From a virus (taxonomy: Duplodnaviria > Heunggongvirae > Uroviricota > Caudoviricetes): DNA of 41,346 nucleotides. Within the stretch, counting starts at the first letter, position 1, and each line of letters opens with the position of its first letter. Shown one piece after another: positions 3,204 through 39,978 of the stretch. A model generated the notes under the pieces. That model was not told the origin of the DNA, did not search any database, and was given only the letters and a program-made list of their open reading frames with translations. The stretch spans positions 1 through 41,346 of IMG/VR virus record IMGVR_UViG_2690316296_000007; one strand, 5' to 3'. The translations under genes were made by a program, and so were the position numbers.

Positions 3204-4502
3204 TCACCATGAAGGATAATTAGGTTTTTTTCCTCTTAAAAGAGATACTTTGTCAATTATCTCAACAGAAGCAGTTCTATAATCCTCCTGCTGAAGTAGG
3301 TGAACTGCATAATCTCTCAATTCTTGCAAAGTGGAAAAGCCGTTACTTTCGATGAGTATTATAATTATCTTAATATACTTAAAGATTTGTTCAGAGGATT
3401 CGTTCGCGTTGACGTTAAGTTCGTAAAAATCTTTACCATCATGAACAAGCTTGTTTCTTACGTCAGTATATAACTCGTCATAAACTTCTAGGTTTTTCTT
3501 AAATTTGATTAGTGAGTTATTACATGTAAGTGCTGCAATGTAGGTCCTTTGCTTCCATCCTTTCCAATTTGGGTCAATATTAGCAAGACCATCAAGTGCA
3601 AAGACTAGGTTTAGAAATTGTGATTCCGCGCCAATTGAATAAAAAGATTGCCTACATGCCCTAACTACGGAGCTAACTAATTTTGAAAGTTCATTTTCAA
3701 CGACTCCATCGTAGATAGAAGATAAATATTGCAACCCAGGGTAATACAAGCTGTCAACCTGAGGGCCTAGCCAATTATTACTCACAGCAAGGGGTCTTGA
3801 TATTCCACTTATCTTAATTGGTTTAAGATGAGTCCTCTCACGAGGAATGATTTCTACATCATAAAATCCGTCAGAGCGTTGACCTGCAGGATTAGGGGTA
3901 TATTCCATACGTGTAAATGAGCTGTGAGAAAATCTGACTAAATCAAGCGCATATTCAGCTATAGATAAACACATGTTTATAACATGGTTGTTATGATCAA
4001 TGCTTGAATTAAGTTTTAATAAATCAATATATGGTAGGTCACAGTTAAACTGTATATACGAACCATCTTGCTCTGATAATCGCTTATGTGACTCTTCATC
4101 AAATTGTCTTCCGCAATAAAAAATATACTTTCCGATCTCGATGGTTTCCTGAATGAAAATCTTCTCAATCGGCACAATAACTATGCACTCCATATTTTTG
4201 TTTTTACCCTCTAATTCAGCTAATTCTAGGTTAGAGCTTCTTGATTTAGCTAACTCTATTTCTACCCACTCAAAGCATATTGAGAAGTCTTCTAGAATTT
4301 CGATACTGCTTTTTTGATAACTATCCTTGGTATATTTAAATGTAATGCCATCTCCTTCAGGATAGGCACTGGCCCAATATCCCATATCTCTTAACTTTTT
4401 TAGAGATGTTGAGATATCGTCGACTTTATTAATAAAATCCTCTTTTCGCCATAAAACATTGCCAGTGTAGTTTTCGTACGGTGGTATTAAACGAGCTTTC
4501 AT
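3204..4502 (-). CDS. Hypothetical 432-aa cargo protein with Rx4H (HEPN-like) motif; candidate abortive-infection effector
   Basis: Long AT-rich ORF with AAGGAAG 6 nt upstream of the ATG; C-terminal region contains RNKLVHDG (R-x4-H); flanked by the repeated hairpin motif. Confidence 0.5.
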   Translation of the reverse strand: MKARLIPPYENYTGNVLWRKEDFINKVDDISTSLKKLRDMGYWASAYPEGDGITFKYTKDSYQKSSIEILEDFSICFEWVEIELAKSRSSNLELAELEGKNKNMECIVIVPIEKIFIQETIEIGKYIFYCGRQFDEESHKRLSEQDGSYIQFNCDLPYIDLLKLNSSIDHNNHVINMCLSIAEYALDLVRFSHSSFTRMEYTPNPAGQRSDGFYDVEIIPRERTHLKPIKISGISRPLAVSNNWLGPQVDSLYYPGLQYLSSIYDGVVENELSKLVSSVVRACRQSFYSIGAESQFLNLVFALDGLANIDPNWKGWKQRTYIAALTCNNSLIKFKKNLEVYDELYTDVRNKLVHDGKDFYELNVNANESSEQIFKYIKIIIILIESNGFSTLQELRDYAVHLLQQEDYRTASVEIIDKVSLLRGKKPNYPSW

Positions 4503-4645
4503 ATAACTTCCTTATTATCCAAGAGGATGTGACTGAAATTTTTATCAGACTTATCTACAATAATATAAATTGACATGAAAAATCTACTCAACAATTAACC
4601 GTTATGATTTGCTTGCGACGACTAAAACATGCCGATGGGTCGCAT

Positions 4646-4668
4646 CCGCTCCTGGCACATAGCAGTCC
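4646..4668. repeat. Hairpin motif copy 3 (ccgctcctggcacatagcagtcc), degenerate
   Basis: About 19 of 24 positions identical to copy 2; lies between the pin 3' end and the 3204..4502 gene. Confidence 0.4.
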
Positions 4669-4834
4669 GAGAGACAGTGGCGTAAAGTCATGGAGGATCG
4701 GTGGGAGGAGGCGCTAATCCTTTCATACAAAAAATATGTAAAATCAATAACGGCTGTAAATCATTCAATACTCGCACTATCGGAAGTTCACCAGCCAACC
4801 GCAGCACGTTCTTGCATACGACGAGCCTGCGGTT

Positions 4835-5389
4835 TCATTTATCTCCGACCGGAAACATCTTATACAGTGTCGATACACCAACATCATAGATGATCGCTAC
4901 CTTCTGGCGAGGAATTCCTGCTGCAATTAATCGTCCGGCCTGCTCCCATTGTTCTGGTGTAAGTTTGGGGCGACGTCCACCAATTCGTCCCTGTGCGCGA
5001 GCAGCTTCCAGTCCAGCTTTTGTTCGTTCAACAATCAGTTCACGCTCCATTTCAGCCAGGGCACCCATCACATGAAAGAAAAAGCGCCCCATTGGGGTAC
5101 TGGTATCAATTGAATCCGTCAGACTACGAAAGTTGATGCCTCGTTCGCGCAACTCCTCCACCAGCACGACAAGATGCCGCATACTGCGCCCCAGTCGGTC
5201 CAGTTTCCAGACCACCAGCGTGTCACCTGCCGATAATGTCCTGAGCAGCTTTTTCAGTCCTGGTCTGTCGGACTTTGTACCGCTTATCTTGTCTTCAAAA
5301 ATCAGCTCACATCCTGCACAGTTCAGCGCATTACGTTGTAGATCGGTATTCTGGTCATTTGTTGATACACGTACATAGCCAATAAGCAT
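4835..5389 (-). CDS. pin: Serine-recombinase DNA invertase (Pin/Gin/Hin/Cin family)
   Basis: N-terminus MLIGYVRVSTNDQNTDLQ with the catalytic Ser in the YVRVS context, resolvase-like core, C-terminal HTH; start moved to the ATG at 5389 (track ORF extends to 5425). Confidence 0.9.
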   Translation of the reverse strand: MLIGYVRVSTNDQNTDLQRNALNCAGCELIFEDKISGTKSDRPGLKKLLRTLSAGDTLVVWKLDRLGRSMRHLVVLVEELRERGINFRSLTDSIDTSTPMGRFFFHVMGALAEMERELIVERTKAGLEAARAQGRIGGRRPKLTPEQWEQAGRLIAAGIPRQKVAIIYDVGVSTLYKMFPVGDK

Positions 5390-26079: not shown

Positions 26080-26706
26080 ATGACATGCCAGCACAATACT
26101 GTCACTTACAACCGTTCGGATTACCTAGAGAAAAGTATGATTCAGGATTTACTGATCGAAGCAATTAGTCACGATAGGATGCATAAAAAGTTAAATGAAC
26201 TGAATGGCTACTTCTACAATCGCAAACATGAAACACAAATACGTGATGAGTTAGTTGTTATACTCAATCAAATCAGCACACTAACTGCTTTAAGTGAGCA
26301 TCCAAAACTCGGTATCGGCGCTGTTGACATATCACTTTATAACCAGTCGATATTAACGTCTGAACATAATGGCAATGTTGCAACCATCGAGATAAAACAC
26401 CATTACCCAAAGGATTTACTTTATCGGCAAGTTCAAGAAGACATCATTTCCGATATTTCAAGAGTAATAGTTTCACCAACTACACATTTTATCCATATAA
26501 TCCAGCAAAGAACCAGGATTAATACTCCTTCTTTTGGCCAAGTGAAATTCCTTGAACGTGATGCAAGTGATATCAGCACTTATGTGCAATACCTTGAAGA
26601 GCTAAGTTCATTTCCCAGTAATTTTCATAAAAAAAGTATATGTATTGAGGTACTTGGTGAAATTATGTCGACATATACCTTTAACGTATATTCATTTGAC
26701 AACTGA
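26080..26706 (+). CDS. Hypothetical cargo protein with possible PD-(D/E)xK nuclease signature
   Basis: AT-rich ORF (alternative start 26137); GAVDISLY ... TIEIKHH fits the D ... ExK spacing. Confidence 0.45.
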   Translation: MTCQHNTVTYNRSDYLEKSMIQDLLIEAISHDRMHKKLNELNGYFYNRKHETQIRDELVVILNQISTLTALSEHPKLGIGAVDISLYNQSILTSEHNGNVATIEIKHHYPKDLLYRQVQEDIISDISRVIVSPTTHFIHIIQQRTRINTPSFGQVKFLERDASDISTYVQYLEELSSFPSNFHKKSICIEVLGEIMSTYTFNVYSFDN

Positions 26707-27725: not shown

Positions 27726-28052
27726 TTACTCCTTAGAACCACCAAACTTATTACCGATTACTCTCATTGCAGCCCCACGAATAGCATCGACACCGATCAA
27801 CCCAACGCCACCACCAATGGCAACAGAAAGAGATTTAGGCCATCCGACATACTCAAGAGCGGATGCAAAAGTCAGCGTCAGAGCACCACAGAGCAAAATC
27901 TCGAGCGTTTTTCGTTTCCAGCCCCCACCACCGCCAAAATATGCAATGCGCAAGCCAGCCATAACAATCGACATAATCACTGCGCCCAGCGGTGTGTCTC
28001 CACGCCACCAGCTCTGGACCAACTCCAACCAAGTATTTGGGTTATGAGGCAT
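27726..28052 (-). CDS. Holin (three predicted TM segments)
   Basis: 108-aa ORF immediately upstream of the endolysin; hydrophobic segments with a charged C-terminus. Confidence 0.65.
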   Translation of the reverse strand: MPHNPNTWLELVQSWWRGDTPLGAVIMSIVMAGLRIAYFGGGGGWKRKTLEILLCGALTLTFASALEYVGWPKSLSVAIGGGVGLIGVDAIRGAAMRVIGNKFGGSKE

Positions 28053-28204
28053 TTGTAGTTATCTCTCACCTCGCTGATACAGCAGGTGCAAATTGAGGGA
28101 ACATCATGTACCGCAAATCAGAAGCGGAAACGTCAAAGAAGCCGAACCAATGGATAACTGCGGAATAGGCCAGAACCAACGAATCCCCAGCCCCAGAAAC
28201 GACA

Positions 28205-28225
28205 AAACCCGCTCGACGCGGGTTT
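28205..28225 (-). terminator. Terminator-like hairpin upstream of the holin (possible tR')
   Basis: AAACCCGC-TCGAC-GCGGGTTT, followed on the minus strand by a U-rich stretch. Confidence 0.3.
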
Positions 28226-28270
28226 AAGCTGTGTGGCGAAGTAACCACTCTTAACACGATACAATACTTT

Positions 28271-28299
28271 TTGCGTACGCGTTAGCATTTGATTAGAAT
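28271..28299 (+). promoter_or_regulatory. Sigma70-type promoter for the Q-S cargo cassette
   Basis: TTGCGT - 17 bp - TAGAAT, then AGGTGA Shine-Dalgarno before the ATG at 28332. Confidence 0.45.
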
Positions 28300-28331
28300 C
28301 CAATCATCAGAAAGCTAGGTGAAGGTTCAAA

Positions 28332-29153
28332 ATGAATTTTTCTTACACAAAACAGGATGGTCATACCAAACGCTGCCTTGTCAGAGCATTCAATGTTAAT
28401 ACAGCAACAACAGATATACTCTTCGACCAAATTTCAAATTCTGGTAAATTTATTGTTGACACTGTTTTTAAAATAAACAATGAACAACATTTAATACTGA
28501 AAGAGTTTTCTACAAATAATAAAAGTCATTACTTACACTTTGCATTATATAATCCAAAAGAACAAGTATCGATCACACCAAAAATAAAAACCGCAAGCGA
28601 TCTTCTTGATGTTGAAAACCTTGACAATTTGCACGCTTTTTTATATGTAAAAGAAAATAAAATTGCATCTCTAATGCAAATATCAACAAATTGGTGTGAA
28701 ATTAAAATCGCTAAAATATTCGAGCAATTTGGTATAAAAATAACACCATCAGCAATTTTGCAAAAAAATGTCATTCAACGAATTAAAGATGATAAACTTA
28801 GGGCTTTGCATCTTAATATTAGCGTTGATGCTTCTAATTTTGTGAAAACGCCCAGCTTTATAGACTCTATTTTTCAGAAAGAACCCAAACTTAAAGCTAG
28901 AGGTATTTCAGGACATTTAACTCTTGATGCAAAAGGAAATGCTGAACTAGCACAATCTATTGAAACCAACCCTAGTGGTTGGATAAATGATTTGGATTCT
29001 GATTTTTATATAGAAACAAAAAAAGGAGAGAAAATAACTAGTGACGACATTAAGTTAACAAAAGTTTATTATACAGTCCCTTATGGTTCAAAATCTATTA
29101 ATTCAAAATATGCGAAAGAAATTCTAGAGGACTTTGCTCAAAAAGAGCTATAA
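28332..29153 (+). CDS. Cargo protein A, 273 aa, soluble, unknown function
   Basis: AT-rich ORF with strong Shine-Dalgarno, antisense to the late operon; no recognisable motif. Confidence 0.55.
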   Translation: MNFSYTKQDGHTKRCLVRAFNVNTATTDILFDQISNSGKFIVDTVFKINNEQHLILKEFSTNNKSHYLHFALYNPKEQVSITPKIKTASDLLDVENLDNLHAFLYVKENKIASLMQISTNWCEIKIAKIFEQFGIKITPSAILQKNVIQRIKDDKLRALHLNISVDASNFVKTPSFIDSIFQKEPKLKARGISGHLTLDAKGNAELAQSIETNPSGWINDLDSDFYIETKKGEKITSDDIKLTKVYYTVPYGSKSINSKYAKEILEDFAQKEL

Positions 29154-29176
29154 TATACTAAAAAAAGGAGGCTAAC

Positions 29177-29662
29177 ATGTTAAAATCACTCAATTACTCA
29201 GGTATATCATTAACTTTGTTAAACATTTTAGCCTCAGTATTATTTTCAATTTTCCTCACACATACTTTAACGAACAATACTGACGCATTAAATTTGGTCG
29301 CCAATGTATTTTCTATCCTATCTGGTTTTCTTTTGTTGGTTATCACAATGTCTGGTGAAAACTCTACTCTGATGAACAACTTAAGCAAATTAGACGCTGC
29401 AAATCAAGAAATACGTTTCCTCATGCGTTTTAACAAATATTATGCTTTATTCTTGTTATATATTTTAACATTAGCTTTAATTTTTGTTTTTTATTTAATA
29501 TCCAAGGATAAAGAAAACACATCTCAATACTTCATTCTGTTTAAGAAGTCAATTGGTTACATTATCTCTTTTTTAACTTGTTTTTCTTTTATACAATCAA
29601 CATTCATCCCACTAAAAATAAAAGAATTATTTAAAGAGAAAAGACAACTTAATAAAAAATAG
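29177..29662 (+). CDS. Cargo protein B, 161 aa, four predicted TM helices
   Basis: AAGGAGG Shine-Dalgarno; four hydrophobic segments; ends at the terminator. Confidence 0.55.
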   Translation: MLKSLNYSGISLTLLNILASVLFSIFLTHTLTNNTDALNLVANVFSILSGFLLLVITMSGENSTLMNNLSKLDAANQEIRFLMRFNKYYALFLLYILTLALIFVFYLISKDKENTSQYFILFKKSIGYIISFLTCFSFIQSTFIPLKIKELFKEKRQLNKK

Positions 29663-29684
29663 GCCGCATAGCGGCCATTTTTTT
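29662..29684. terminator. Bidirectional rho-independent terminator
   Basis: GGCCGC-ATA-GCGGCC hairpin with T7 run on the plus strand and T6 run on the minus strand; overlaps the stops of cargo protein B and Q. Confidence 0.6.
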
Positions 29685-30046
29685 CATGTTAACAAAATAC
29701 TTAAACAGCCATCGATGAATCCCATTGCAGTCTGTAATTCTTTTCGGATGGTACCATCAGAACACTTCTGCTTCTTTGCGATAGTTCTTAATGAGATGCC
29801 GATAATAAAATGAGCAATAACCAACTCATACTCTTCGGGCTTATATTTACGCAATCGCGCAACACAGCTGTCAATCATGATTCCTTCATCATCATCGCAT
29901 TGTTGGCGTGTTTTCTTTCCATGAGGTAGTAAACCTTTAAACCCTGCAGCAACAGGCTGCCAGTCCACACCACTGTTATCTGCTGCAGCCCATGCTCCCC
30001 AGCGGTCCAAAACTTCATACATATCACGCATCAACTTTCTCCACAA
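29684..30046 (-). CDS. Late-gene antiterminator Q (QuuD/QuuQ-like)
   Basis: VLDRWGAWAA ... DWQPVAAGFKGLL ... CDDDEGIMIDSCVARL ... CSDGTIRKELQTAMGFIDG resembles E. coli prophage Q proteins as recalled. Confidence 0.8.
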   Translation of the reverse strand: MWRKLMRDMYEVLDRWGAWAAADNSGVDWQPVAAGFKGLLPHGKKTRQQCDDDEGIMIDSCVARLRKYKPEEYELVIAHFIIGISLRTIAKKQKCSDGTIRKELQTAMGFIDGCLSILLT

Positions 30047-35237: not shown

Positions 35238-35912
35238 ATGAAAACAATCCATGACATCCGGCGGTCTAACGCCAGAAAACTGAGAGATGGTGTTGGCGGG
35301 AATTCTTCCTTTGCCACTATGATTGATCGCGAGCCAACCCAGACCAGCAGGTTTATGGGAGATGGTGCTACTAAAAATATCGGTGACAGCATGGCACGAC
35401 ACATCGAAAAATGTTTCGACCTGCCTGTCGGATGGCTCGATCAAGAACACCAGACAACGAACATCACAAAAAAACCTGATGTTTCAATCACTAATAAACA
35501 AATCACATTAGTCCCTGTCATATCATGGGTACAGGCCGGAGCATGGAAAGAAGTTGGATATTCTGAGGTTGATTTGAGCACAGCAGAAACGTATCCCTGC
35601 CCTGTACCCTGTGGGGAAATGACTTATATCTTGCGGGTGATAGGTGATTCAATGATTGATGAGTACCGCCCGGGAGACATGATTTTTGTCGATCCTGAAG
35701 TACCTGCCTGCCACGGTGACGACGTTATTGCATTGATGCACGATACAGGCGAAACCACCTTCAAAAGGTTGATAGAAGATGGGACACAGCGTTATCTCAA
35801 AGCGTTAAACCCAAACTGGCCTGAGCCTTACATTAAGATCAACGGTAATTGCTCTATAATTGGTACAGTGATTTTCTCAGGAAAACCAAGAAGATACAAA
35901 ATCAAAGCCTAA
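35238..35912 (+). CDS. CI-like prophage repressor (HTH plus S24 LexA-like peptidase domain)
   Basis: 224 aa; C-terminal GDSM ... YRPGD motifs; e14 CohE-like size. Confidence 0.85.
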   Translation: MKTIHDIRRSNARKLRDGVGGNSSFATMIDREPTQTSRFMGDGATKNIGDSMARHIEKCFDLPVGWLDQEHQTTNITKKPDVSITNKQITLVPVISWVQAGAWKEVGYSEVDLSTAETYPCPVPCGEMTYILRVIGDSMIDEYRPGDMIFVDPEVPACHGDDVIALMHDTGETTFKRLIEDGTQRYLKALNPNWPEPYIKINGNCSIIGTVIFSGKPRRYKIKA

Positions 35913-36146: not shown

Positions 36147-36353
36147 ATGCACAAAACAGAACCCAAAATCGTCGCGCCTGGCTACACAGATGAGGAAATT
36201 TATGAGTGGATGACAAAGAAGCTGGCAGCTATAAACCAGCTTCGTGAAGTGCTGTCTTATCGACAGGAAACAATAGACTCCTTAAAAAAACTGGATCAGG
36301 AAATCACGGTTTTATCACAGGATGTTACTTTAGATATTGTGCAGACAAATTAG
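36147..36353 (+). CDS. Small hypothetical protein, first gene after pL
   Basis: 68 aa from the ATG at 36147 with GAGGAG Shine-Dalgarno; helical, no Arg-rich N-like motif. Confidence 0.45.
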   Translation: MHKTEPKIVAPGYTDEEIYEWMTKKLAAINQLREVLSYRQETIDSLKKLDQEITVLSQDVTLDIVQTN

Positions 36354-36759
36354 GATCCCATTCATTTTCGTCAAAATCATCAAAGTGATGAATTTGTGAT
36401 CTCCAGTCTCGATAATCTAAAAATTTCTGGGCGGTTACGCTTATTTTATCAAGTGTGAGTTCATCCTGAATTGAAAGAAGAAGTTCATCAAATTTCATCT
36501 CATTAATCTGTTTTGGCATCCAGTGATGCTTCATCAGAATAAGGTGAACCAGAGCCTTTTTCCCATTCAACTGATTATAGGGAGTGCCGAATTTCTTCCG
36601 GTGCTCATGTAAGACAAGGTCCAAAAGAGTAAGTAATGTTGCCCTTGATTCAACTTTGCTTATTTCGACTGATGACACTACCCCACTGATTTCAATGCCC
36701 CGATACTTTCCAACATTTTCACAGTGGGATTTGTACAGCGTATAGATATTACCGGACAT
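36325..36759 (-). CDS. Hypothetical 144-aa protein antisense to the pL operon (candidate exclusion/accessory gene)
   Basis: AT-rich ORF convergent with 36147..36353 (29-nt overlap); direct repeats GTTGTTGGGGA(T/A)AAC just upstream at 36775..36823. Confidence 0.5.
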   Translation of the reverse strand: MSGNIYTLYKSHCENVGKYRGIEISGVVSSVEISKVESRATLLTLLDLVLHEHRKKFGTPYNQLNGKKALVHLILMKHHWMPKQINEMKFDELLLSIQDELTLDKISVTAQKFLDYRDWRSQIHHFDDFDENEWDPNLSAQYLK

Positions 36760-38498: not shown

Positions 38499-38848
38499 TG
38501 GAGCCATACAGCCTCACACTCGATGAGGCCTGTCATTTTCTCAAGATATCCAGACCGACTGCCATTAACTGGATACGCACAGGGCGTCTTCAGGCAACAC
38601 GCAAAGATCCCACTAAGAATAAATCTCCTTACCTCACAACACGACAAGCCTGCATTGCGGCTCTTCAGTCTCCGCTGCATACTGTCCAGGTGAGCGCGGG
38701 TGATGGCATAACAGAGGAAAGAAAATGTCACTCTTCCGCAGAGGTGAAATATGGTACGCCAGTTTCACATTGCCGAACGGTAAAAGATTTAAACAGTCTC
38801 TTGGAACAAAGGACAAAAGGCAGGCGACAGAACTCCATGACAAGCTAA
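38498..38848 (+). CDS. Excisionase-like DNA-binding protein (AlpA/Xis type)
   Basis: [29 protein letters not shown]; ATG at 38498 preceded by AAGAGG; the 3' portion overlaps the integrase start, so the true stop is uncertain. Confidence 0.55.
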
Positions 38849-39888
38849 AGGCTGAAGCATGGCGGGTCAGCAAACTTGGTGAAATACCTGATATAACGTT
38901 CGAGGAAGCGTGTGTCAGGTGGCTTGAAGAGAAAGCACATAAAAAATCACTGGACGATGACAAAAGCCGGATCGGATTCTGGCTTCAACATTTCGCAGGA
39001 ATGCAACTAAGAGACATTACTGAATCAAAAATTTATTCAGCAATGCAGAAAATGACGAACCGGCGTCATGAGGAAAACTGGAAACTCAGGGCAGAAGCAT
39101 GCAGAAAAAAAGGGAAACCTGTTCCAGAATACACGCCAAAACCAGCGTCCGTTGCAACGAAGGCTACGCATCTTTCATTTATAAAGGCCCTACTAAGAGC
39201 CGCAGAGCGTGAATGGAAAATGCTGGATAAGGCACCAATTATTAAAGTGCCTCAACCAAAGAATAAACGGATCCGCTGGCTGGAGCCCCATGAAGCACAA
39301 AGGCTGATTGATGAATGTCCGGAGCCATTAAAGTCTGTTGTTGAATTTGCACTGGCAACAGGCTTAAGACGCTCGAACATCATCAACCTTGAATGGCAAC
39401 AAATAGATATGCAGCGCCGGGTGGCATGGATAAACCCGGAAGAGAGTAAATCAAACCGCGCAATTGGCGTTGCGCTGAATGATACTGCATGTCGCGTATT
39501 GAAAAAACAAATCGGGAATCATCACCGTTGGGTATTTGTGTACAAGGAAAGCTGTACCAAACCAGACGGAACGAAAGCGCCAACAGTAAGGAAGATGCGG
39601 TATGACGCAAACACAGCCTGGAAAGCGGCGCTGAGACGGGCTGGTATTGATGATTTCAGATTTCACGACTTGAGACACACCTGGGCAAGTTGGCTGGTTC
39701 AAGCCGGAGTCCCGTTGTCAGTGTTACAGGAAATGGGAGGCTGGGAGTCTATCGAAATGGTTCGTCGATATGCTCACCTTGCACCTAATCACCTTACCGA
39801 ACACGCACGGCAAATAGACTCGATCCTGAACCCATCGGTCCCAAATTTGTCCCAGTCAAAAAATAAGGAAGGTACTAATGATGTGTAA
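38725..39888 (+). CDS. Tyrosine integrase
   Basis: 387 aa; N-terminal arm-binding region ([22 protein letters not shown]); C-terminal [39 protein letters not shown] with catalytic Tyr. Confidence 0.9.
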
Positions 39889-39902
39889 CTTATTGATTTT
39901 AA

Positions 39903-39978
39903 TGGTGCCGATAATAGGAGTCGAACCTACGACCTTCGCATTACGAATGCGCTGCTCTACCAACTGAGCTATATCGGC
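39903..39978 (-). tRNA. thrW: tRNA-Thr (anticodon CGU)
   Basis: 76-nt cloverleaf GCCGATATAGCTCAGTTGGTAGAGCAGCGCATTCGTAATGCGAAGGTCGTAGGTTCGACTCCTATTATCGGCACCA; anticodon loop TT-CGT-AA; 3' CCA end faces the integrase. Confidence 0.9.

Follow-up and report, generated by a model that had tools for sequence, protein, structure and literature searches.

Which function is encoded by the small gene pair that separates the antiterminator gene Q from the holin gene in a Caudoviricetes genome, and could it be directed against other phages? The window, i.e., the whole stretch of DNA that was analysed (41,346 nucleotides), contains the following genes at this place:

27726-28052, minus strand: lambda-type holin gene (PF05106).
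28332-29153, plus strand: gene A, encoding a soluble protein of 273 aa without TM segment and with a predicted RexA-like two-domain fold; proposed sensor/DNA-binding component.
29177-29662, plus strand: gene B, encoding an inner-membrane protein of 161 aa with four hydrophobic helices; proposed membrane effector.
29684-30046, minus strand: Q21-type antiterminator gene (PF06530, E 1.9e-46), which forms the constant right-hand border of the hotspot described below.

An earlier note on this DNA had described an AT-rich cassette of two genes, encoding a 273-aa soluble protein and a 161-aa four-TM protein, between Q and the holin gene. This description holds: both ORFs have these sizes and places and lie on the same strand, the PF06530 and PF05106 flanks are both on the minus strand, and the GC content of the cassette is 0.27-0.31 compared with about 0.50 in the flanking DNA. 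The Q gene product also matched the solved Q21 chains 6P18 and 6JNX (E 3.5e-4). The gap between the stop codon of A and the start codon of B is about 23 nt, and the predicted pI values are 8.6 for A and 9.65 for B. The four helices of B appear in its AF2 model (pLDDT 70), in agreement with a hydropathy scan. The possibility that A and B are chance ORFs was rejected, since the homologues in either family are full-length, conserved and syntenic.

Expression signals of the cassette

The signals that could drive and limit the expression of the pair are as follows:

28271-28276, plus strand: -35 element TTGCGT of the cassette promoter, inside a block that is invariant among phages with this Q type.
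28294-28299, plus strand: -10 element TAGAAT of the cassette promoter, after a spacer of 17, on the part of the junction that the cargo contributes.
28317-28325, plus strand: Shine-Dalgarno-like sequence AGGTGAAGG of gene A.
29166-29171, plus strand: Shine-Dalgarno sequence AGGAGG of gene B, 5 nt upstream of the ATG.
29662-29685, both strands: bidirectional intrinsic terminator GGCCGCATAGCGGCC, with the hairpin GGCCGC-ATA-GCGGCC at 29662-29676 and a T-run on either strand.

The cassette had been credited with a sigma70-like promoter of its own, TTGCGT-17-TAGAAT, with ribosome-binding sites and with a terminator, and all of them were located. The promoter matches 8 of the 12 consensus positions, is absent from the listing of the consensus scan, and has strong comparative support. 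TTGCGT is invariant in a seven-locus alignment, and of the 99 distinct junctions of other phages that were anchored on this hexamer, 65 show TAnnnT at a distance of exactly 17 nt, the counts for other offsets being 0-10. Occupied sites mostly have a -10 element at this offset (44 of 60), and the empty sites do not (0 of 6). The fold energies of the terminator, from a scan of both strands, are -13.0 and -14.8 kcal/mol, and this predicted element would end transcription of both the cassette and the convergent Q gene. The window copy thus carries a comparatively supported, predicted sigma-70 promoter together with a putative terminator of its own. The ATG chosen for A is supported because all its homologues begin with MNFS. 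An Rfam scan of the region gave no match.

The probable late promoter block and the insertion site

The -35 element of the cassette overlaps a conserved block that is linked to Q and is read as the late promoter region:

28290-28196, minus strand: conserved Q-linked block, probable late promoter region, invariant CTAACGCGTACGCAAAA, with putative hexamers; outside the cassette.
28266-28261, minus strand: putative -10-like element TATTGT in the Q-linked block.
28253-28248, minus strand: second -10-like element TAAGAG, a candidate sigma-dependent pause element.
28225-28196, minus strand: tR'-like hairpin and T-run, from the terminator scan.

This block, which was aligned at seven loci, recurs in about 970 genomes of E. 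coli as well as in many lambdoid phages, and it defines the insertion site. The cassette is situated between the Q stop codon and the block. In empty sites the block adjoins the Q stop codon (34 nt), and phage Stx2a_1447 has its tRNAs and stx2 downstream of it. Because the block abuts Q when the site is empty and precedes stx2 in Stx2a_1447, the cassette lies most probably upstream of the late promoter and outside the late transcript, in a site other than that of stx.

Consequently, two points of the earlier note have to be amended. It had placed the cassette antisense to the late operon: the opposite orientation is correct, but the cassette sits on the Q side of the late promoter block and most probably outside the late transcript. 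It had also equated the site with the one where Shiga toxin genes sit, and this does not hold, since stx2 lies beyond the block in Stx2a_1447 and the insertion sites differ. The genes, flanks, GC content, ribosome-binding sites, terminator and promoter of that description are retained. A virulence or Stx-like cargo within the late transcript was rejected, as such a cargo would have to lie on the other side of the late promoter block.

Distribution and genomic context of the pair

Judged by gene order, A and B are inherited together: B adjoins A in all 14 viral-contig loci holding A (14/14), and the homologues have adjacent locus tags. At 90% identity the A family comprises 68 clusters and the B family 137, and they range over Enterobacterales, Aeromonas and Pasteurellaceae. 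The window copy and most Enterobacterales copies are far from the immunity region, and the slot downstream of cI in the window holds an unrelated 144-aa soluble ORF. In contrast, prophages of Mannheimia and Pasteurella have divergent members in the immunity region, immediately downstream of a cI-like repressor, and so do PhiR11_1 and 2G7b, which are cultured lambda-like coliphages. The DNA homology between PhiR11_1 and lambda reaches as far as the stop codon of cI, disappears across the pair, and returns from the final 9 nt of rexB onwards. By this alignment, PhiR11_1 is a phage in which an A/B pair has been swapped in for rexAB, with flanks that align to lambda. It carries a separate sieB nearby, and its recorded host is E. 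coli MG1655. The source of the PhiR phages is presumably Brenes & Laub 2025.

Predicted fold and sequence tests of protein A

The absence of a recognisable motif in either protein, pointed out before, agrees with scans of A and B against Pfam, NCBIfam, PADLOC and PHROGs, none of which gave a named family. A had no Pfam match at E<=1, its match in PADLOC v2 was at noise level alone (Cas2_IIIb, 0.0075), and it matched phrog_23561 of PHROGs, whose function is unknown.

When the predicted structure of A was compared with 350,542 PDB chains by Foldseek, RexA was the sole match at E<=0.001 (E 2.9e-4, probability 1.00, full-length alignment), the confidence of the model being moderate (pLDDT 79.5, with two stretches at 50-56). 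The model consists of a beta-rich N-terminal domain (about 1-131), a beta/alpha middle part with four helices (about 139-248) and a C-terminal helix (258-272); RexA (8TWQ) has a split globular domain (1-139 plus 248-279) and a dimerisation domain (143-234). The predicted structure shows a RexA/RdgC-type two-domain fold, in which the split globular and central dimerisation domains of RexA can be recognised. RdgC (2OWL) shares fold space with A, at a score below that of RexA. RdgC is a chromosomal housekeeping protein that forms a recombination-associated DNA-binding ring and has an extra tip domain, and we know of no membrane-protein partner for it. Its architecture, i.e., a ring-shaped dimer with base, centre and tip encoded by a stand-alone chromosomal gene, was not found in A.

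The earlier note had suggested profile and structure searches of both proteins, and these gave a predicted RexA-like fold for A and no homology to RexA or RexB at the sequence level. PF15969 (RexA) matched none of the 28 members of the A family, compared with 1e-97 for lambda RexA itself. In hhalign comparisons with shallow profiles (Neff 2-5), the narrow and widened profiles of A reached 0.3% probability against a 24-sequence RexA profile, the A-like protein of PhiR11_1 reached 0.4% against the same profile, and the narrow and widened profiles of B reached 0.1-0.2% against the RexB profile. The A and B profiles gave only noise against PDB sequences, and a deep profile search of 1.84 billion representatives recovered 24 clusters, none of them bridging to RexA. 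The top A-RexA hhalign alignments were roughly co-linear, an observation to which we have given no weight.

The membrane partner, protein B

Four helices are a common shape among membrane proteins. B did not match PF15968 (RexB), and Foldseek detected no significant structural match for it in BFVD. Its sequence matches were sub-threshold only (DUF4064 and SLATT_4), and those in PADLOC v2 were at noise level (JetB, 0.006; a 4TM effector model, 0.09). B is more conserved than A, and its TM2 is nearly invariant (conservation 0.90), with a polar stripe formed by D36, N39, N43, S46, G50 and T57 on one helical face (P about 0.02). This polar TM2 provides a concrete target for mutagenesis of the putative effector.

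Comparison with known Rex systems

RexAB is the oldest known abortive-infection system and, to our knowledge, its trigger in lambda and the route by which RexA activates RexB are still unsolved. The lambda rexA-rexB operon (PF15969/PF15968; RexA structure 8TWQ) has the same order and spacing of two genes as A/B. The hydropathy scan applied to B (161 aa, four TM) also gave four hydrophobic segments for RexB (144 aa), and the pI values are 8.6 for both RexA and A, and 9.3 for RexB compared with 9.65 for B. B has in common with RexB that it is a small basic four-TM protein encoded just downstream of a soluble partner. In addition, the rexAB slot itself is occupied by divergent A/B members, PhiR11_1 being a replacement. 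On the other hand, no sequence similarity of A and B to lambda RexA and RexB is detectable by HMM or profile-profile comparison, the TM2-TM3 loop is about 10 residues longer in B, and the invariant TM2 motif of B (NNxDALNLVANxFSILxGFLLLVIT) is distinct from RexB. The window copy is free-standing between Q and the late promoter block, whereas lambda rexAB belongs to the cI operon, and the GC content of lambda rexAB (0.40-0.43) is much higher than that of A/B.

By January 2026 the number of described Rex-like systems had reached only five (PMC12894663). RexABpp of Pseudomonas putida (PP_5643/PP_5644), a validated system, is found near a cI-like repressor in a host clade different from those of A/B, and RexApp, unlike A, matches RexA at HHpred 98% (PMC12894663). 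The actinobacteriophage pairs Sbash gp30/gp31, CarolAnn gp44/gp43 and Butters gp30/gp31 are prophage-encoded, consist of a soluble RexA-like protein and a membrane protein, and resemble A/B by description. These Rex-like pairs exclude heterotypic phages, and their position relative to the repressor varies; unlike A/B, they belong to Gram-positive hosts. [quoted passage not shown]

Proposed function and alternative explanations

Taken together, the analysis suggests that the most likely identity of the cassette is that of a distant relative, so far unannotated, of the lambda RexA/RexB anti-phage system, and we regard the explanation as a whole, that of a divergent RexAB-like phage-exclusion cassette, as probable rather than certain. 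The architectural analogy with RexA/RexB drawn in the earlier note is strengthened by the divergent pairs in the rexA-rexB slot, with no sequence-level homology detected. Its proposal of an undescribed phage-exclusion or membrane-effector candidate gains support from the rex-slot relatives, the defence hotspot and the absence of a library name.

By analogy with lambda RexAB and P. putida RexABpp, the lysogen would express the cassette, and A, probably a DNA-binding dimer, would sense a product of the infecting phage or a DNA-protein intermediate. A would then activate B, which may oligomerise via its conserved polar TM2 face to form a channel or membrane lesion; the polar stripe lends this step indirect support. 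The membrane would depolarise, ATP would drop and growth would halt, in such a way that the superinfecting phage could not multiply. If this is true, A/B adds a Rex-like family missed by the copies of Pfam, NCBIfam and PADLOC that were searched, and PhiR11_1, with the pair in place of rexAB, is a natural experiment that allows an isogenic comparison of the excluded phages and the trigger.

The roles of the two proteins might be reversed as in Butters gp30/gp31, the RexA-fold protein A being a toxic or antiviral effector (e.g., by DNA clamping) that B keeps sequestered or restrained until infection. This is unlikely, since B is better conserved than A, above all on the polar TM2 face, a pattern expected of an active pore or interface more than of a passive anchor, and since the effector is the membrane protein in four of the five described Rex-like systems. 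Small prophage inner-membrane proteins expressed from moron-type promoters often exclude superinfection, such as SieA, SieB, Cor and T4 Imm. Given its four membrane helices and the lysogen-type expression signals of the cassette, B could act in this way at the envelope, blocking DNA injection or a receptor/transporter without abortive infection, with A as an accessory or regulator. We consider such envelope exclusion improbable, as it leaves unexplained the strict pairing with a 273-aa cytoplasmic RexA-fold protein and the replacement of rexAB in PhiR11_1, a phage that already has its sieB.

A function outside defence would make A a RexA/RdgC-like DNA-binding modulator of the lysis-lysogeny switch or recombination of the prophage, and B an unrelated or accessory protein. 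The fold space shared with RdgC and the family members adjoining cI are consistent with it, as is the effect of lambda RexA, which is reported to bind DNA without RexB and to bias the bistable switch toward lysis (PMC11077077). However, the window copy and most Enterobacterales copies lie in a defence-rich hotspot at a distance from the immunity region, and B is always kept and highly conserved, which makes this function quite improbable. It is highly improbable that the pair is a lysis-timing accessory (antiholin or holin regulator). It does adjoin S, and B is a small membrane protein, but the pair moves with Q and the promoter block rather than with the lysis genes: its neighbours include holins of at least three unrelated families (PF16931, PF05106, PF04971), and it also occurs beside cI in other phages and beside an integrase in Providencia. 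Moreover, it lies on the opposite strand, and its signals suit expression in the lysogen over late expression. A lysis regulator was rejected as a candidate since the pair moves independently of holin type.

The Q/late-promoter junction and its other cargos

Judged by its gene content, the Q/late-promoter junction is a defence hotspot, in which 46 cargo protein clusters were found between Q and the Q-linked block. The cargo includes Kiwa (KwaB E 5e-144), an NsnA/PD-T4-2-like system, a PtuA/GajA-like ATPase with a methyltransferase, and the PADLOC candidates PDC-M53, PDC-S42, PDC-S33 and PDC-S60; many of the clusters, which number at least 46, have no PADLOC match. As evidence for a role of A/B in defence, these neighbours amount to guilt by association. 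No description of the hotspot was found in the literature searched, nor were papers found on the A/B protein accessions, the PHROG id or PDC-M53. The junction is compact and easily searched by a 16-nt motif, which makes it a convenient place to look for new defence candidates.

A broader proposal, to which we assign a small chance, is that the Q21-type Q/late-promoter junction would be a dedicated defence dock with cargo expression tied to the developmental switch. Each cargo would bring only its -10 element and borrow the -35 element TTGCGT from the invariant promoter/Q-loading block of the divergent late promoter, occupancy of this block by RNA polymerase or Q at induction would silence the cargo, and A/B would be one of several families of RexA-fold and membrane-effector pairs moving between the rex slot and the dock. 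If so, the shut-off of the cargo would protect the lytic growth of the prophage from its own abortive-infection module.

Kiwa (KwaA/KwaB) and PDC-M53A/B (SfII_50/SfII_49) share with A/B the insertion site, the orientation and the promoter arrangement, and they are also pairs of a membrane and a soluble protein, but they have no sequence similarity to either A or B. Similarity was likewise not detected between A and the soluble cargo protein of SfII, nor between the latter and that of Stx2a. In Kiwa the small membrane gene comes first, unlike the A-then-B order.

Organization and flanks of the cassette

The cassette consists of gene A, encoding a soluble protein, and gene B, encoding a four-helix membrane protein, and it is flanked as follows:

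27726-28052, minus strand, lambda-type holin gene (Pfam Phage_holin_3_1, E 5.7e-25)
28271-28276 and 28294-28299, cassette promoter, -35 TTGCGT and -10 TAGAAT, spacer of 17 nt
28332-29153, same strand as B, gene A, ORF of 273 aa
29177-29662, same strand as A, gene B, ORF of 161 aa
29684-30046, minus strand, Q gene (Pfam Phage_antitermQ PF06530, E 1.9e-46)

The two ORFs and their Q and holin neighbors described in an earlier note are thus present; Q belongs to the phage 21 type (E 3.5e-4 against the solved Q21 chains). The AT-rich character of the unit was also confirmed (GC 0.26-0.31 within the cassette versus about 0.50 outside), as were its ribosome-binding sites, AGGAGG before B and AGGTGAAGG before A, and its terminator, GGCCGCATAGCGGCC at 29662-29676, which has a T-run on either strand and a terminator score in both directions. 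The promoter hexamers proposed in that note are in place and have comparative support (see below), but TTGCGT-17-TAGAAT is weak relative to the consensus and was not among the promoters listed by a consensus scan.

Insertion site and promoter

Among 5,426 complete genomes of E. coli, about 970 share the first ~100 nt of the interval originally delimited (28199-29690), as do many lambdoid phages; the entire cassette is found in only 5 genomes. This shared region contains a conserved minus-strand block (about 28290 to 28196) with the order CTAACGCGTACGCAAAA, TAT(T/A)GT, TGnTA(A/T)GAG and a hairpin with T-run, invariant in seven aligned loci; no recognizable -35 was found for its TATTGT. In Stx2a_1447, a methylase gene, three tRNA genes and stx2AB lie downstream of the block, which another two-gene cargo separates from Q. 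Q could be placed in 79 viral-contig loci, and in these the block is 34 nt (empty site) to 3.8 kb away from the Q 3' end. In the standard Q regulatory cassette, promoter, sigma-dependent pause element and terminator come directly after the Q gene (10.1101/651190). Taking these three observations together, we read the block as a putative late promoter region plus its terminator. It follows that the cassette would lie between Q and the late promoter, divergent from the latter and convergent with Q, and outside the late transcript, rather than inside the late operon as first proposed. Nor does it occupy the stx site, as had also been claimed: the insertion site is a different one, on the Q side of the block that precedes stx2AB in Stx2a_1447.

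To compare promoters, 120 viral contigs containing TTTTGCGTACGCGTTA were reduced to 99 distinct junctions. TAnnnT occurs exactly 17 nt past TTGCGT in 65 of these 99, and 0-10 times at any other offset, counts that do not represent a formal probability since the junctions are phylogenetically non-independent. The middle bases of the -10 differ (TAAACT, TAGAAT, TACAAT, TATGAT, TATATT and others), and 44 of 60 occupied sites have the hexamer, versus 0 of 6 empty sites. The offset counts and this contrast indicate that the cargo supplies a -10 that works with a -35 inside the block, and they are good comparative evidence that the sigma-70 promoter of the cassette would be functional. Some viral contigs (L099 10804-10933; L118, three copies) carry two or three tandem TTGCGTACGCGTTA blocks about 110 nt apart, with neither a cargo ORF nor TAnnnT at the 17-nt offset.

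Cargos of the hotspot

The site between Q and the block is an insertion hotspot that, in the 79 loci, houses cargo proteins of 46 clusters, arranged in about 30 ways. The A/B pair is the commonest cargo (12 loci), and PADLOC recognized the following others:

Kiwa (KwaB, E 5e-144)
NsnA/PD-T4-2_A
PtuA/GajA/HEC-04-like ATPase with a cytosine methyltransferase
candidates PDC-M53A/B (SfII pair), PDC-S42, PDC-S33 and PDC-S60

In E. coli strain 300033 the hotspot contains a single 1,050-aa metallophosphoesterase-NACHT/STAND protein (PDC-S60, E 3e-97; L011 3671-6823, L140 2241-5423), and the -10 of its cargo promoter, at the 17-nt offset, is a perfect TATAAT. In at least four other cargos (L002 2640-4254; L012 3630-5193; L116/L115; L102), a soluble protein (about 300-340 aa) is likewise paired with a 3-4-TM partner (about 180-190 aa). 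These are PDC-M53A/B of phage SfII, Stx2a_1447_24/23, a 308+182 pair and a 311+186 pair. In the 311+186 pair, the PDC-M53B-type membrane gene goes with a different soluble partner, suggesting that modules have been shuffled.

Proteins A and B

Neither protein matched Pfam or NCBIfam, and neither has a PADLOC model, in agreement with the earlier failure to recognize a motif in them; A falls in phrog_23561, a PHROG of unknown function. Full-length homologues are spread across Enterobacterales and Aeromonas (68 clusters for A and 137 for B at 90% identity), and the two genes are linked, their homologues being adjacent in genomes as judged by consecutive locus tags. A homologue 52% identical to A is located between Q and holin in eight prophages whose holins, endolysins and replication genes differ. 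A deep search of 1.84 billion representative proteins yielded only 24 clusters. The B model shows four long helices (pLDDT 70); helix 2 is the most conserved stretch of the protein (0.90), and its conserved polar residues D36, N39, N43, S46, G50 and T57 lie on a single helical face (P about 0.02).

Two methods were used to compare the AF2 model of A (pLDDT 79.5, pTM 0.70) with PDB structures. With one of them, Foldseek, RexA was the sole match at E<=0.001 (E 2.9e-4 over 291 alignment columns, probability 1.00). We attribute the global TM-score of 0.35 to a differing angle between the two domains; the RexA crystal form is described as closed, with a hinge and a swivel loop. RexA has a split globular domain (1-139 and 248-279) and a dimerization domain (143-234) of four strands and four helices. 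The predicted elements of A fit this layout in their order: the N-domain, up to about 131, is beta-rich, the middle beta/alpha region (~139-248) has four helices, and a helix forms the C terminus (258-272). Against this link stand the sequence comparisons with RexA/RexB proposed in the earlier note, all of which failed: A and its family members did not match PF15969, nor B PF15968, and hhalign probabilities for A with RexA and B with RexB were <1% even with widened profiles. We therefore file A/B as a system of the RexAB kind but keep it outside the RexA and RexB families, whose HMMs do not match and to the second of which B shows no homology.

Divergent relatives in the rexAB position

In prophages of Mannheimia varigena and Pasteurella multocida, the gene immediately downstream of an S24 repressor is A-like (about 20-25% identity to A). 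The repressor faces a cro/YdaS-type gene and replication genes, and a clear B homologue, overlooked by gene callers, follows each A-like gene. The cultured coliphages PhiR11_1 and 2G7b have the order Ren-P-O-cII-Cro, then cI, A-like (31.5% identical), B-like (34%, E 1e-26), N and SieB. The recorded host of PhiR11_1 is E. coli MG1655, and its cI is identical to lambda cI across most of the C-terminal half. In blastn, homology to lambda (95%) reaches the cI stop codon, is absent over the A/B-type pair, and returns at the final 9 nt of rexB and downstream (91.5%):

L142 (PhiR11_1, PV340547) 3403-4872, cassette swap, versus lambda 37225-35834

Thus, an A/B-family pair replaces rexA-rexB in the same slot of this close lambda relative, which provides a ready-made isogenic comparison with lambda rexAB. 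Gene order and spacing in canonical rexA-rexB loci are as in A/B-type pairs. PhiR11_1 presumably comes from Brenes & Laub 2025, reportedly a screen of ECOR prophages.

A third genomic context was observed in Providencia (L021 5001-6429), where A-like (301 aa) and B-like (161 aa) genes lie directly upstream of a tyrosine integrase gene, with neither Q nor cI nearby.

Possible mode of action

By analogy with lambda RexAB and RexABpp, A would sense infection and then switch on B, which may build a channel or lesion, so that the cell would be depolarized, growth halted and the infection aborted. Rival explanations are a Butters-like exchange of the roles of A and B, superinfection exclusion at the envelope level, and a non-defense DNA function of the RexA/RdgC type. 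Regulation of lysis, which the proximity to the holin might evoke, is disfavored, since movement of the pair is not tied to that of the lysis genes. By January 2026, descriptions existed of only five RexAB-like systems (PMC12894663). No name for the A/B family was found in the literature and libraries searched, whose scope did not extend to Brenes & Laub 2025.

Other features of the window

The window contains neither a canonical rexAB nor a further A/B copy. Its other features of interest are:

26080-26706, plus strand, AT-rich ORF of 208 aa (GC 0.34-0.37; phrog_12494, function unknown)
36325-36759, minus strand, soluble ORF of 144 aa with no family match, downstream of a cI-like repressor (35238-35912)
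38725-39888, plus strand, tyrosine integrase gene
39906-39978, minus strand, tRNA gene

The 144-aa ORF occupies the position of lambda rexAB and has the length of RexB, but a RexB-like identity was ruled out because it lacks TM segments and is encoded on the opposite strand. The 208-aa ORF, likewise encoded on the opposite strand and located between Rz/Rz1 and the HNH/terminase genes, is missing in the otherwise near-identical FDAARGOS_1373 prophage. Since related prophages carry other plus-strand genes there (Bor, an acetyltransferase, unknowns), the position looks like a second cargo site. The integrase and tRNA genes are directly side by side, and 38725-39978 is probably the prophage end and attachment site.
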